From contig JBDLKA010000023.1 of NCBI GenBank assembly GCA_039714075.1, positions 1 to 41,864 of the forward strand: 41,864 nucleotides of DNA. Direction: 5' to 3'. The translations under genes were made by a program, and so were the position numbers. Source of the stretch: Candidatus Krumholzibacteriota bacterium. Its GTDB lineage: Bacteria > Krumholzibacteriota > Krumholzibacteriia > LZORAL124-64-63. Of this stretch, positions 4,501 to 21,289 are shown one piece after another (position 1 is the first letter of the stretch; the number at the start of each line of letters is the position of its first letter). The notes below the pieces were generated by a model. It was not told the origin of the DNA, searched no databases, and worked only from the letters and a program-made list of their open reading frames with translations.

Positions 4501-4777
4501 CGACGGTCGGCAGGACGGCGTCGGGCTTTTCGGCCGCGATGATTTTTTCCGCCATTTCCCAGGTGAGGGGCTCGATGTAGGTGGCGTCCGCCTGGTCGTT
4601 GTCGGTCATGATGGTCGCGGGGTTGCTGTTGATCAGCACCACCCGGTAGCCCTCGTTCTTGAGGGCCTTGACCGCCTGGGTTCCCGAGTAGTCGAACTCG
4701 CTGGCCTGGCCGATGACGATGGGTCCGGATCCCAGGACCAGGATCGTCTTGATGTCATCCCGTCGCGGCATGTTCAT
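1517..4777 (-). CDS. carB: Carbamoyl-phosphate synthase large subunit
   Basis: [49 protein letters not shown], second ATP-grasp half [14 protein letters not shown]-terminal MGS domain. Start may be 4771. Confidence 0.98.
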
Positions 4778-5888
4778 CCATTTCCTGAAGAGAGGTTTCG
4801 GCCCGCCGGGCGAGCATCATTTCGCGGAACCGGCGAAACAGGTACAGGCTGTCGCTGGGCCCGGGCGCGGCTTCGGGATGGTACTGGACCGAGTAGGCCC
4901 AGCCGCCGGTGGTGGCCAGCCCCTCGATCGATTCGTCGTTCAGGCTGCGGTGCGTGACGGCGGCCACCGCCGGGTCCAGGCTGCCTGCCGGGACGGTGTA
5001 GTTGTGATTCTGGCTGGTGATCTCCACCCGGCCGGTGGCCAGGTTCTGCACCGGATGATTGGCGCCGTGATGGCCGAAGGGCAGCCGGACCGTTTCCGCG
5101 CCCAGGGCCCGGGCCAGCAGCTGGTGCCCGAGACAAATGCCGAACAGGGGCATGTCGGCGGCCAGCAGTTCCCTGACCGTGTCGACCAGGTGGTCGAGAG
5201 CGGCGGGATCGCCCGGCCCGTTGCTCAGGAAAACACCCTCGGTGGGAGCGGCCAACAGTTCCCGGGCGGGTGTGGAGGCCGGAAAAACCCGGACCCGGCA
5301 GCCCTCGGCCACCAGCCGGCCCAGGATGCTCTTTTTAACCCCGCAGTCCAGGACGGCCACCTCGAAGGGATCGTCGGTGCCCGGGTCGCCGGGAAATGGC
5401 GCCACCGCGCGGGTGGTCACACGCTCGACCCAGTTCACCTTGCCGATGGGATCGAGGGCGCGGGCTTTTTCCACCAGCCGCAACGGATCTCCCATCCCTA
5501 TATACCCGCGGCAGGTTCCGTGCTCGCGCAGGTAGGCGGTCAGGGCCCGCGTGTCGACTTCGGCCAGGGCGGGCACGCGCGCGGTCCGCAGCACCTGGTC
5601 CAGGCTGTATTCACTGCGCCGGTGAAAATTCCGGCGGCAGAAATCCCGCACGATGACGGCGGCGGGGTGGATGGCCGCCGACTCGTGGTCATCGCGGTGG
5701 ATGCCGTAGTTGCCGATGTGGGCGGCGGTGAACACGACGACCTGGCCGGCGTAACTGGGATCGGTCAGGATTTCCTGGTAGCCGGTCATTCCGGTGTGGA
5801 AAACGACTTCCCCACCGGTCTCCAGGGGCGCGCCGAACAACCGGCCCGAAAAAACACGACCGGTTTCCAGGGCGATGAATGCTTTCAT
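4755..5888 (-). CDS. carA: Carbamoyl-phosphate synthase small (glutaminase) subunit
   Basis: [29 protein letters not shown], catalytic GICLGHQ and QYHPE motifs; 3' end overlaps the carB start. Confidence 0.97.
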
Positions 5889-6799
5889 CAGGCGTCCCCT
5901 TTTCTGACCTGGTTCCTGACCCTGGAGGGGCCGTTGTCGGAGGAGGGAATCATCAGGCGGGCGATACGGTCCATGGGGTCGATCAGGGTGTCCATGACCG
6001 ATTCCAGTCCCATCAGGTACTGCAGCAGGTTGCCCAGGCCCAGACTGAAGCCGGCCCGGGGCGGTTCTCCGGGACGGACGGCGCCTTCCATGGTGATGCC
6101 GGAGTAGGGCAGGATGTAGGCGGCGCTCAGGGCGGCCTCTTCATCTTCGGGATCGGCCAGGGCCAGATCGGATTCATCGCCGGCCGGAAGATGCGTCACC
6201 ATGAAGGGTAGATTCCCGCAGAATCGGGTCAGGGCGGCTTCGGCTTCGGCGGGAAGTTCATCCCCGAACCGAAGAGACCAGCCTCGCCGGCCGAGAATAT
6301 CGAGGGCCTGGCGGTAGGTGATGCGGGGATGGGAGACATGGAGGATGCGGTCCAGGCGGGTGACGTCGCGGCCGCCGAGAAGATCGGCGCCCAGGTTCAG
6401 GGCCACGGCTTTGAGCAGGTCCTCCTGCAGATCCGTCAGGTCCTCGAGGGACAGTCCCATCCCCGAGGCTTCCATGAGTTTGAAACCCCTCAAATGACGG
6501 GGATCCCTTCGGCCCCTGCTGGGCAACAGTTCACTTTCGCACCACACGTTGGGGAACCCGCTGAGGACCATGCCGTCCAGTTGAATCCGCGCCGGGTGGT
6601 CGGCCATGGCGGTCACCGGGATTTCGTGGAAATTCCTGTCCTGGAAAAACCGGCGGATGGTGCGCACGACGCAGTTATGGATGGCCAGACGCCGGGCCAG
6701 GGGGCGGGGGCGGCCCGGGGCGTTGAACATGGCGGATTTCTGAATCTGGCCGTTGGCGGAAGCCTGACCGGACGGACCGGCGGTGGCGGCGGCTGCCAT
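5888..6799 (-). CDS. Degenerate class IIb aminoacyl-tRNA synthetase (AsnRS/AspRS) catalytic-domain paralog without anticodon-binding domain
   Basis: Aligns by eye with the window's AsnRS: IRRFFQDRNFHEIP, RHLRGFKLME, ITYRQALDIL..FGDEL..EAE, AGFSLGLGNLLQYLMG. ATG at 6799 follows AAGGAG (track start is 6823). Stop overlaps the carA start (TGATG). Confidence 0.8.
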   Translation of the reverse strand: MAAAATAGPSGQASANGQIQKSAMFNAPGRPRPLARRLAIHNCVVRTIRRFFQDRNFHEIPVTAMADHPARIQLDGMVLSGFPNVWCESELLPSRGRRDPRHLRGFKLMEASGMGLSLEDLTDLQEDLLKAVALNLGADLLGGRDVTRLDRILHVSHPRITYRQALDILGRRGWSLRFGDELPAEAEAALTRFCGNLPFMVTHLPAGDESDLALADPEDEEAALSAAYILPYSGITMEGAVRPGEPPRAGFSLGLGNLLQYLMGLESVMDTLIDPMDRIARLMIPSSDNGPSRVRNQVRKGDA

Positions 6800-6895
6800 G
6801 GGAGTCTCCTTTTTGACGCTCACTGACGTCAGTTAAACGGAGTGTATGTGGTTGTCAGGACCGGCGTTGGTGCATTTCAGCGCAGAATTCCGGGC

Positions 6896-6933
6896 AAAAA
6901 AATACCCCTCACGTCCTCAGGGACGCCGGGGTG
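6896..6933 (-). terminator. Intrinsic terminator (attenuator) in the car operon leader
   Basis: Minus strand CACCCCGGCGTCC-CTGA-GGACGTGAGGGGTA followed by T7, about 100 nt upstream of the first start codon. Confidence 0.85.
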
Positions 6934-6981
6934 CGGGCGGAAGCGTTTTTTGCCGTTCATTGTCGCCGGGATCATTCCGAT

Positions 6982-7014
6982 TCCTTTCGAGGCTCACAGG
7001 CCCCGGTTAAAGGA
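6982..7014 (-). promoter_or_regulatory. PyrR-binding-site RNA element
   Basis: Minus strand UCCUUUAA-C-CGGGGC-CUGUGA-GCCUCG-AAAGGA shows the CUUUAA lower stem, the CNGNGA hexaloop and AAAGG closure typical of PyrR loops. It lies upstream of a terminator and carAB. Confidence 0.8.
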
Positions 7015-7022
7015 TTTGCGGC

Positions 7023-7051
7023 AGGATAAACTCCGGCCCGGCACTTGTCAA
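7023..7051 (-). promoter_or_regulatory. sigma70-type promoter of the pseudo-aaRS-carA-carB operon
   Basis: TTGACA (7051-7046), 17 nt, TATCCT (7028-7023). Predicted start near 7016, immediately before the PyrR loop. Confidence 0.75.
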
Positions 7052-7205: not shown

Positions 7206-7243
7206 AAAAAAATGGCCGCCCCCAGGACGATTTGGGAGCGGCC
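7206..7243 (-). terminator. Intrinsic terminator ending the putative sRNA
   Basis: Minus strand GGCCGCTCCCA-N8-TGGGGGCGGCC-A-T7, with no credible long CDS upstream on this strand. Confidence 0.8.
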
Positions 7244-19220: not shown

Positions 19221-19712
19221 CTATCCCGATTTTTCCACGGCCCGGTCGACAAAGGCACGCAATTCATACATCTGATCGGCGGAAAGACCCTGGCCGATGA
19301 ACGCCGCGCCGTAGACGAAGGCGATCAGGGCCAGGGAACCCGGGAAGGCGAAAAAGCCCCAGGGGAATTCATCCACCGTGGTCTGGGCCCAGCCCAGTAT
19401 CAGGCCCGCGAAACCCAGCAGACCCAGAAAGATGTACAGGGCCATGAAACCCGTCCACACATTGGGGGCGGGGCTGAAGCGTCCGACCAGGCAGGTGCCG
19501 TCGGGGCCGTCGTCCAGTTCCAGGTTCAGGAAAGGGGAAAGCAGGGACCGGCGGTCCCGGGGCATCTGGAGAAAGGCGTGGCAGCGGACCACCTGCCCCG
19601 CCAGTGAGGCGTCGGGCGCCGCCAGTTTCCGTCCCAGCTGTTCGAGGACCGCCGATCCGTCCCCCGGGACCGGAATCCGGAAGCGGGGCCGCATGCGGGG
19701 AAGTCGCGTCAT
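19221..19712 (-). CDS. Hypothetical membrane protein with two TM helices
   Basis: AGGAG RBS; hydrophobic segments [24 protein letters not shown] and [21 protein letters not shown]. Confidence 0.8.
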
Positions 19713-19803
19713 GGAATTCTCCTTGGATTGTCTTGATCCCGGTCAGGATAGCCTATCCAGGACAAATTGTCTCCTCTTTTCGGCGCCGGGAGGGACCCTG
19801 CGG

Positions 19804-19832
19804 TTGTCCGGCCCCGGTCCTGGTGTTATCAT
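19804..19832 (+). promoter_or_regulatory. sigma70 promoter of asnS
   Basis: TTGTCC, 17 nt, TATCAT with extended -10 TG. Confidence 0.55.
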
Positions 19833-19876
19833 TTCGGGCCCAAGACAGGAATTCCCGTCACCATGAAGGAAACAGG

Positions 19877-21289
<1,413 letters not shown>

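Follow-up and report, generated by a model that had tools for sequence, protein, structure and literature searches.

The window studied here is a stretch of 41,864 nucleotides of DNA from a Candidatus Krumholzibacteriota bacterium (GenBank assembly GCA_039714075.1, contig JBDLKA010000023.1). On its minus strand, carA and carB, the genes for carbamoyl-phosphate synthase (CPS), are preceded by a gene for a synthetase-like protein, which we call X. The window also encodes a complete asparaginyl-tRNA synthetase (AsnRS). The genes are located as follows.

5888..6799, minus strand: X, a class IIb synthetase core of 303 amino acids that resembles AsnRS, lacks an anticodon domain and has degenerate catalytic motifs
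4755..5888, minus strand: carA (377 amino acids), with the Pfam domains CPSase_sm_chain and GATase; its ATG shares one base with the X stop codon
1517..4777, minus strand: carB (1086 amino acids), assigned with Pfam; it overlaps the end of carA and its MGS-like allosteric domain is complete
19604..21289, plus strand: the true AsnRS, with the Pfam domains tRNA-synt_2 and OB-fold

X is the first gene of the carAB operon in the window. The last base of its TGA is the first base of the carA ATG (minus-strand letters CCTGATGAA), and the sequence AAGGAG lies 7 nucleotides 5' of its own ATG. A preliminary description of this DNA had pointed out the overlap of stop and start and a strong ribosome-binding site for X, and both can be read in the sequence.

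By sequence and by modelled fold, AsnRS is the closest relative of X. In Pfam, tRNA-synt_2 is the sole domain of X (32.2 bits, gathering cutoff 25, E = 7.8e-8) and no OB-fold (PF01336) was found, in agreement with the missing anticodon domain of the preliminary description. BLASTP aligns X with the AsnRS of the window (E = 5e-13, 23% identity) and gives the same motif pairings that had been made there by eye. A profile of the X family matches P. horikoshii AsnRS in the PDB (1x54, E = 8e-21). An AlphaFold model of X, made with 75 homologues, has a pLDDT of 83.8 and a pTM of 0.80. The best Foldseek match of this model is again an AsnRS (1x56, E = 5.5e-18, TM 0.70), archaeal and eukaryotic aspartyl-tRNA synthetases (AspRS) come next, and the top 50 matches are AsnRS or AspRS structures without exception. 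Profile and structure searches had been proposed as a check on X, and they agree in placing it in the tRNA-synt_2 family with AsnRS structures as the best matches.

X falls outside the more specific families with which it was compared. NCBIfam ranks AsnRS first, then archaeal-type AspRS and then AsnA, all far below their cutoffs. The AsnRS models give 42.5 bits (cutoff 414) and 36.6 bits (cutoff 342.6), and X lacks the OB-fold and the motif-2 and motif-3 arginines of an AsnRS. The AsnA/AS-AR models have cutoffs from 309 to 389, and the best score of X against them is 27.8 bits (NF005052, cutoff 368; NF005054 gives 10.7 against 309). The model for EpmA/GenX/PoxA (TIGR00462) gives 15.1 bits against a cutoff of 286.9. 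The matches in Pfam, in NCBIfam and in the PDB profile search are of class IIb only, with no model or structure of histidyl-tRNA synthetase (HisRS) or HisZ among them, and X is not a member of the HisZ family.

The catalytic site was mapped by aligning X to the AsnRS of the window among 130 homologues, with numbering on the X translation; the roles of the AsnRS positions are taken to be those we know from the class II literature. Seven positions differ from AsnRS. The SGQ glutamine is R71 in X, the motif-2 arginine is P93, the motif-2 glutamate is R95, the second glutamate is S112, the metal-binding aspartate is A227, the metal-binding glutamate is I235 and the motif-3 arginine is N257. The arginine and histidine of the motif-2 loop (R101, H102), the adenine-stacking phenylalanine (F106), the glutamate that follows it (E110) and the GGSQR arginine (R242) are kept. 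The alignments also show deletions of the loop that follows motif 1 and of the stretch that precedes motif 3.

Most of these changes had been noticed in the preliminary description, which listed the loss of motif-2 residues and of the metal-binding D and E, a degraded motif 3, shortened segments following motif 1 and preceding motif 3, and the retention of RHL and of the R of SQRE. It also took the Q of SGQL to be retained, and this was mistaken. The SGQ-glutamine column is arginine in 87 of 111 short homologues (HMM and MAFFT alignments; the short form is described below), and the glutamine of 'RIQL' in X lies two positions past it. To judge from the alignments, the short form of X lacks the residues for aminoacyl-adenylate formation, and from this loss we infer that X is non-catalytic. 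The lost residues and the fold together support the view of X as a catalytically degenerate core of the AsnRS/AspRS type.

Homologues of X and their neighbourhoods

A word-indexed search found at least 146 homologues of X at E ≤ 1e-3, and the named taxa among them are mostly Krumholzibacteria. An exhaustive search found 190, with 20 at E ≤ 1e-30. In their sources these proteins are called 'hypothetical protein' or, automatically, 'aspartyl/asparaginyl-tRNA synthetase'. A few of the bins that carry X are labelled Fibrobacteraceae or Gemmatimonadales. As far as sampled, the X family is confined to one candidate phylum. A genome scan gave 38 loci with X (L001 to L038). In L026 and L030 the contig stops within X; in the other 36 the open reading frame (ORF) is intact to its stop codon.

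Three forms of X can be grouped from alignments of the locus proteins, a count over 130 homologues and a quick tree. The long forms (about 380 amino acids) comprise 14 of the 130 proteins and occur at six loci. They keep the SGQ glutamine in 13 of 14 proteins, the motif-2 arginine in 13, the motif-2 glutamate in 12, the metal-binding glutamate in 13 and the motif-3 arginine in all 14. The first acidic (metal) position is also kept in the long forms, as glutamate in 12 of 14; the GGSQR arginine is present in only 8. The middle forms (about 320 amino acids) mostly have proline at the motif-2 arginine and mostly proline or glutamine at the motif-3 arginine. The short forms (about 290 amino acids) make up 111 of the 130 and include X of the window. 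In these the motif-2 arginine is proline in 101 of 111 and the metal-binding glutamate is isoleucine, leucine or valine in 97; the motif-3 arginine is kept in 71, and it is histidine or asparagine in the subclade of the window.

In the quick tree all X proteins fall in a single clade (100% SH-aLRT), well apart from the AsnRS of the window, with an unresolved three-way split at its base. A change from long to short forms is plausible, although the order is not fixed by this tree. Metagenomes also contain many unnamed AsnRS-like proteins of 300-350 amino acids without an anticodon domain (P0161 to P0189), whose best NCBIfam match is AsnRS, below the cutoff. In the quick tree the neighbour of the X family is one of them, P0161, which has a long branch.

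The ratio of nonsynonymous to synonymous changes (dN/dS, omega) was calculated for 49 pairs with the Nei-Gojobori method. Omega of X is below 0.55 in 49 of 49 pairs and 0.15-0.3 in close pairs. Among the least saturated pairs, between the window and L001 it is 0.22 for X and 0.13 for CarA, between L013 and L019 0.16 and 0.12, and between L019 and L038 0.19 and 0.14; for X of L005 and L003 it is 0.15. The preliminary description had named dN/dS as a means of recognising a decaying gene, and these values indicate that X is under purifying selection and is not decaying.

Conservation was measured as the mean frequency of the commonest residue in the 111 short forms. The most conserved segments are the hinge and motif-1 helix (residues 25-44, 0.87) and residues 137-152 (ADLLGG..VTRLDR, 0.91). 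The rebuilt motif-2 segment (residues 81-112) reaches 0.79 against an average of 0.71 for the core, which suggests that the former active site has not been left to drift and that its new form is under constraint. The C-terminal tail (window 5888-5950, minus strand) is variable (0.29), with low confidence in the model. The last codons of X, AAA GGG GAC GCC TGA, contain a purine-rich AGGGGA close to the 5' side of the carA ATG, and the tail may owe part of its retention to a role as ribosome-binding site of carA.

Gene neighbourhoods can be read in 36 of the 38 loci, all but L026 and L030. The carA gene lies directly 3' of X in 26 of these 36, spread over all three clades, so that the position of X at the head of carAB, first described for the window, is the usual one (the other ten loci are considered below). 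In all 26 linked loci the X stop codon and the carA start codon overlap; they share a single base in 25 of these loci and four bases in L001.

A PyrR-type RNA leader before X

The region 5' of X contains an RNA leader of the PyrR type. This is a new observation, which lies outside the coordinates of the preliminary description. The leader region has the following features.

6896..7017, minus strand: attenuator, composed of a PyrR-binding-loop hairpin, a terminator hairpin and a U7 run (Rfam RF00515 and our own covariance model)
6806..6841, minus strand: second PyrR-type hairpin (sequence and minimum-free-energy fold); its 3' arm AAAAGGAG is the Shine-Dalgarno sequence of X
7023..7051, minus strand: sigma-70-like promoter TTGACA-17-TATCCT (consensus scan), directly 5' of the leader
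7214-7243, minus strand: strong terminator-like hairpin of 11 pairs with a T-run, 5' of the X promoter

The attenuator aligns to 115 of 115 positions of RF00515. Its binding loop reads CCUUU-AAC...CCUGUGAGCC...GAAAGGA, with high posterior probability over the loop, and is followed by a hairpin and the U7 run. The score is 33 bits (E = 0.015 in the window, 0.0048 in a search of 281 nucleotides). Sixteen loci were searched whole, and syntenic matches were found in L001 (40 bits), L004 (37.3), L020 (37.1) and L002 (36). All five scores are below the gathering threshold of 54. The binding-loop consensus, the terminator and the downstream carAB are as expected for this family, and the upper stem covaries. 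The other 12 whole loci gave no match to RF00515 at E ≤ 1 (L007, L009-L012, L016, L017, L019, L022, L029, L031 and L038).

Our own covariance model was built from the five RF00515 matches (window, L001, L002, L004 and L020). It gives 57 matches at E ≤ 1 in 424,924 nucleotides, and 6896..7017 of the window scores 137.5 bits. Read by their coordinates, all 57 lie on the strand of X and at or just before its 5' end, with at least one match in each of the 39 sources. Whether or not carAB is present, a PyrR-type leader is therefore found 5' of X, in the window and in 38 of 38 loci. RF00515, a model that requires hairpin and terminator, gave no match in short windows of L033 and L038; these two loci have only the Shine-Dalgarno hairpin there, and their leaders are identified by our own covariance model and by the sequences.

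The Shine-Dalgarno hairpin has the pattern C[CT]TTTAA, stem, CNGNGA[G/A], stem, AAGGAG and ends 6-9 nucleotides 5' of the ATG. Of the 38 loci, 37 have it, and L001 was not matched by the search pattern. In the window it is a one-base variant, CCGTTTAA, which was read by eye and to which our own covariance model gives no match at E ≤ 1. Compensatory changes are seen at four of the five upper-stem pairs of this hairpin; one pair, for instance, is GC in 18 sequences and AU in 15. In the alignment of the five attenuators there is compensatory change in one of 24 pairs, with too little variation for more. Because the 3' arm of the hairpin is the Shine-Dalgarno sequence of X, binding of a regulator should block translation of X. 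In several loci that are unlinked to carAB or of the middle form (L010, L021, L032 and L034-L036), only the Shine-Dalgarno hairpin is found, directly after a conserved TCTGCC-like start, which suggests that control in these loci is translational only.

The promoter matches the consensus at 10 of 12 positions; the scan gave two sites in the region against 0.2 expected from shuffles, and this is a pattern match only. The hairpin at 7214-7243 presumably ends an upstream transcript of the minus strand.

The leader resembles PyrR attenuators (RF00515) in its binding-loop consensus, its terminator and U-run, and its place before pyrimidine genes. It differs from them in its scores (33-40 against the gathering threshold of 54), in that the first gene is synthetase-like, and in that the second binding loop doubles as the Shine-Dalgarno sequence of X. 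To judge from its sequence, the leader would be bound by PyrR. The Shine-Dalgarno hairpin stays with X in all eight loci that are unlinked to carAB, which ties X to pyrimidine metabolism generally and not specifically to CarAB. Whatever the function of X, a PyrR loop that serves as a Shine-Dalgarno sequence, coupled into carAB, would be a compact two-level control.

The possible role of X

Tentatively, we propose that X has no catalytic activity and serves carbamoyl-phosphate or early pyrimidine synthesis as an accessory or sensor protein whose production is regulated by pyrimidines. It would be an analogue of HisZ and not a relative. X would be a pseudo-synthetase, a class IIb core derived from AsnRS that has lost its anticodon domain and, in the short form, the residues for adenylation too. 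It would be made only when pyrimidines are scarce, by means of the PyrR-type leader with its attenuator and a hairpin that buries the Shine-Dalgarno sequence, and carA and carB would come under the same control by way of the stop/start overlap. X would then be a non-catalytic partner, accessory or ligand-sensing, of CPS and possibly of aspartate transcarbamoylase (ATCase) also, using either its remodelled former active site or the highly conserved surfaces formed by residues 25-44 and 137-152. A more specific version of this proposal, which we regard as doubtful, is that X forms a third, non-catalytic chain of bacterial CPS or of a CPS-ATCase assembly, senses aspartate or asparagine in its rebuilt site and tunes the output of carbamoyl phosphate.

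HisZ appears to be the closest functional analogy for X. In the part of a review of synthetase paralogues available to us, HisZ is a non-catalytic HisRS paralogue and the regulatory subunit of the short-form ATP phosphoribosyltransferase HisG (PMC9437257). Like HisZ as portrayed there, X is a class II core without anticodon domain or adenylation residues that is under selection and is tied to the first enzyme of a pathway. The two differ in origin, as X comes from a class IIb synthetase of AsnRS/AspRS type and HisZ from the class IIa HisRS. The short HisG has no regulatory domain of its own, whereas the CarB beside X has a full allosteric domain. Furthermore HisZ is a known subunit of HisG; the tie between X and CarAB is seen here in sequence and synteny.

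Three other systems are instructive. AsnA and AS-AR are relatives of AspRS and AsnRS without an anticodon domain, of about 300-350 amino acids, and the long forms of X keep the equivalent catalytic set. Unlike these active ligases, X of the window has neither the arginines of motifs 2 and 3 nor the two metal ligands, and the X family forms its own clade in the quick tree (100% SH-aLRT). With AsnRS, its best match in sequence and fold, X shares the RHL, GF and VTRL(D/E) segments; it differs from AsnRS in lacking the OB-fold, in its deleted loops and in its lost catalytic residues, and the host has a separate, complete AsnRS. The ATCase of Pseudomonas needs an inactive dihydroorotase chain, according to the part of the source available (PMC7053772). 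As far as that source goes, it is likewise a case of an inactive paralogue serving as a non-catalytic chain of an early pyrimidine enzyme, a precedent in logic only; its fold is unrelated to that of X and its partner enzyme is different.

Several observations weigh against the proposal that X is a non-catalytic accessory protein acting on CPS. The preliminary description had suggested consistent adjacency to carA as a check, and this was borne out by the 26 linked and overlapping loci and not by the remaining ten. Eight informative loci have an intact X with no carAB within reach (L021, L028 and L032-L037). In L003 and L008 an intact X is followed only by fragments of carA and carB (L003:1867-2263 and L008:6858-7046; carA residues 1-22 and 248-283, carB residues about 691-778), which reflects either the recent loss of carAB by deletion or an artefact in the assembly of short contigs of metagenome-assembled genomes. 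Since X is intact in these ten loci, it does not need an adjacent carAB. Where carA is adjacent, regulatory coupling through the Shine-Dalgarno hairpin could by itself explain the conserved overlap, with no need for a protein complex. The C-terminal 227 amino acids of CarB align to residues 846-1069 of E. coli CarB with one two-residue gap, at the far C-terminus past the MGS-like domain, and CarA is of normal length; with a complete allosteric domain and a normal CarA there is no gap in CPS that calls for a third subunit. The idea that X replaces a lost allosteric domain of CarB was rejected for the same reason. A weak search for longer forms of X, or forms fused to a partner, found none, and no phosphoribosyltransferase-type ORF or pyrR was seen among the ORFs of the window scanned with Pfam. 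Finally, the long forms look catalytically competent by their residues, so the family may be, or may have been, enzymatic. A complex prediction of X residues 20-292 with CarA, made without CarB, gave a score of 0.00, which counts neither for nor against binding.

This last objection leads to the alternative that X is still an enzyme. The long forms would be AsnA-like ligases that adenylate aspartate and make asparagine or another aspartyl amide, possibly with ammonia from CarA, and the short forms would carry out a related reaction in a rebuilt site. Residual or altered activity is most credible for the long forms, with their nearly complete catalytic set, and the strong conservation of the rebuilt motif-2 segment in the short forms could be read in the same way. 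AsnA and its archaeal counterpart are known relatives without an anticodon domain, according to the available part of the review (PMC9437257). However, the short forms have proline at the motif-2 arginine and a hydrophobic residue at the metal-binding glutamate in the large majority of cases, and their flipping-loop region is deleted. Even among the long forms the GGSQR arginine is kept in little more than half, the NCBIfam AsnA score is far below its cutoff (27.8 against 368) and it is hard to see why pyrimidines should control an asparagine synthetase. We think it unlikely that X as a family is enzymatic. It is equally unlikely, in our judgement, that X is a protein of the pyrimidine regulon whose partner is not CPS, such as a sensor of aspartate or asparagine, a regulatory chain of ATCase, or a dimer partner of AsnRS or AspRS that redirects aspartate when pyrimidines are low. 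The Shine-Dalgarno hairpin, which accompanies X in all eight unlinked loci, is in keeping with such a role, as is the motif-1 region, the class II dimer interface, which is kept in X together with the invariant Pro61. AsnRS lies two genes from X in L032 and L035. In the unlinked loci X stands alone between genes of the other strand, convergent or divergent. Similar neighbours recur where carAB is not adjacent (L008, L032, L033 and L035, and also L028, L036 and L037), with a two-domain family-2 glycosyltransferase on the 5' side of X and a YbaK-type aminoacyl-tRNA editing domain, a uracil-DNA-glycosylase-family gene, or both on the 3' side. Because these flanking genes are on the other strand they give no hint on the function of X. 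Linkage to carA, and not to pyrB, seems ancestral since it is present in all three clades.

The two remaining explanations concern the leader itself. X might matter chiefly in cis: translation of a long leader cistron would hand PyrR control down to carA and carB, and the protein would be a relic. The overlap of stop and start in all 26 linked loci, the hairpin over the X Shine-Dalgarno sequence and a variable tail whose last codons form AGGGGA before the carA ATG would all fit such a cistron. The protein does not behave as a relic, however: its omega of 0.15-0.3 in close pairs is not neutral, several long segments are more than 85% conserved, and loci that lack carAB still have an intact X and its hairpin. 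We therefore consider a role mainly in cis quite improbable. Binding of RNA 3' ends and of nucleotides is a property of class II synthetase cores, and X could on this ground be a synthetase-derived, nucleotide-sensing RNA-binding protein that binds its own leader hairpins and takes the place that pyrR has in other pyr operons. In 39 of 39 sources the hairpin is found with X regardless of carAB, a pattern typical of autoregulated regulators. The hairpins nevertheless fit the PyrR consensus closely (CCUUUAA, CNGNGAG loop, AAGGA), which points to a canonical PyrR. X is also not basic, with an isoelectric point of 5.2-7.9 in 36 of the 39 entries (the others are L008, L016 and L035, and the L016 entry has a spurious N-terminal extension), and it has no RNA-binding anticodon domain. 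Weakened by the near-neutral isoelectric point and the fit to PyrR, autoregulation by X has very little credence with us.

HisZ, AsnA and EpmA are textbook cases of synthetase paralogues recruited to metabolism. We know of no recruited synthetase paralogue in nucleotide synthesis, and of none derived from AsnRS as a non-catalytic protein. A search of the full-text literature found no description of a protein like X, and the preliminary description knew of none either. The available part of the review of synthetase paralogues ties none of them to carbamoyl-phosphate or pyrimidine synthesis, and the word 'carbamoyl' does not occur in it (PMC9437257). Taken together, our results suggest that X is an undescribed helper protein of pyrimidine synthesis in one little-known phylum.

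The X family offers a testable system, confined to one candidate phylum as sampled, with a PyrR leader, carAB as its usual neighbour and active sites graded from apparently competent to clearly dead. If X does modulate CPS or ATCase, the branch point of arginine and pyrimidine synthesis would prove to have an additional, new level of control. As a chain of CPS it would be the first case of a synthetase giving rise to a regulatory subunit in nucleotide biosynthesis, and its long, middle and short forms would then be living intermediates on the way from enzyme to pseudoenzyme.

Other features of the window

At positions 1-1431 on the minus strand, after carB, the window encodes a protein with response-regulator and PAS domains, which has a 70% identical counterpart in L002:11066-12451. 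PAS histidine kinases are also encoded convergent to X in L008 and L033, with no evident link to X.

The longest ORF of the true AsnRS has 561 amino acids, yet the OB-fold begins only at residue 115, and the orthologous ORF in L035 has 466 amino acids. The start of the true AsnRS is probably about 95 codons further in than that of the longest ORF.

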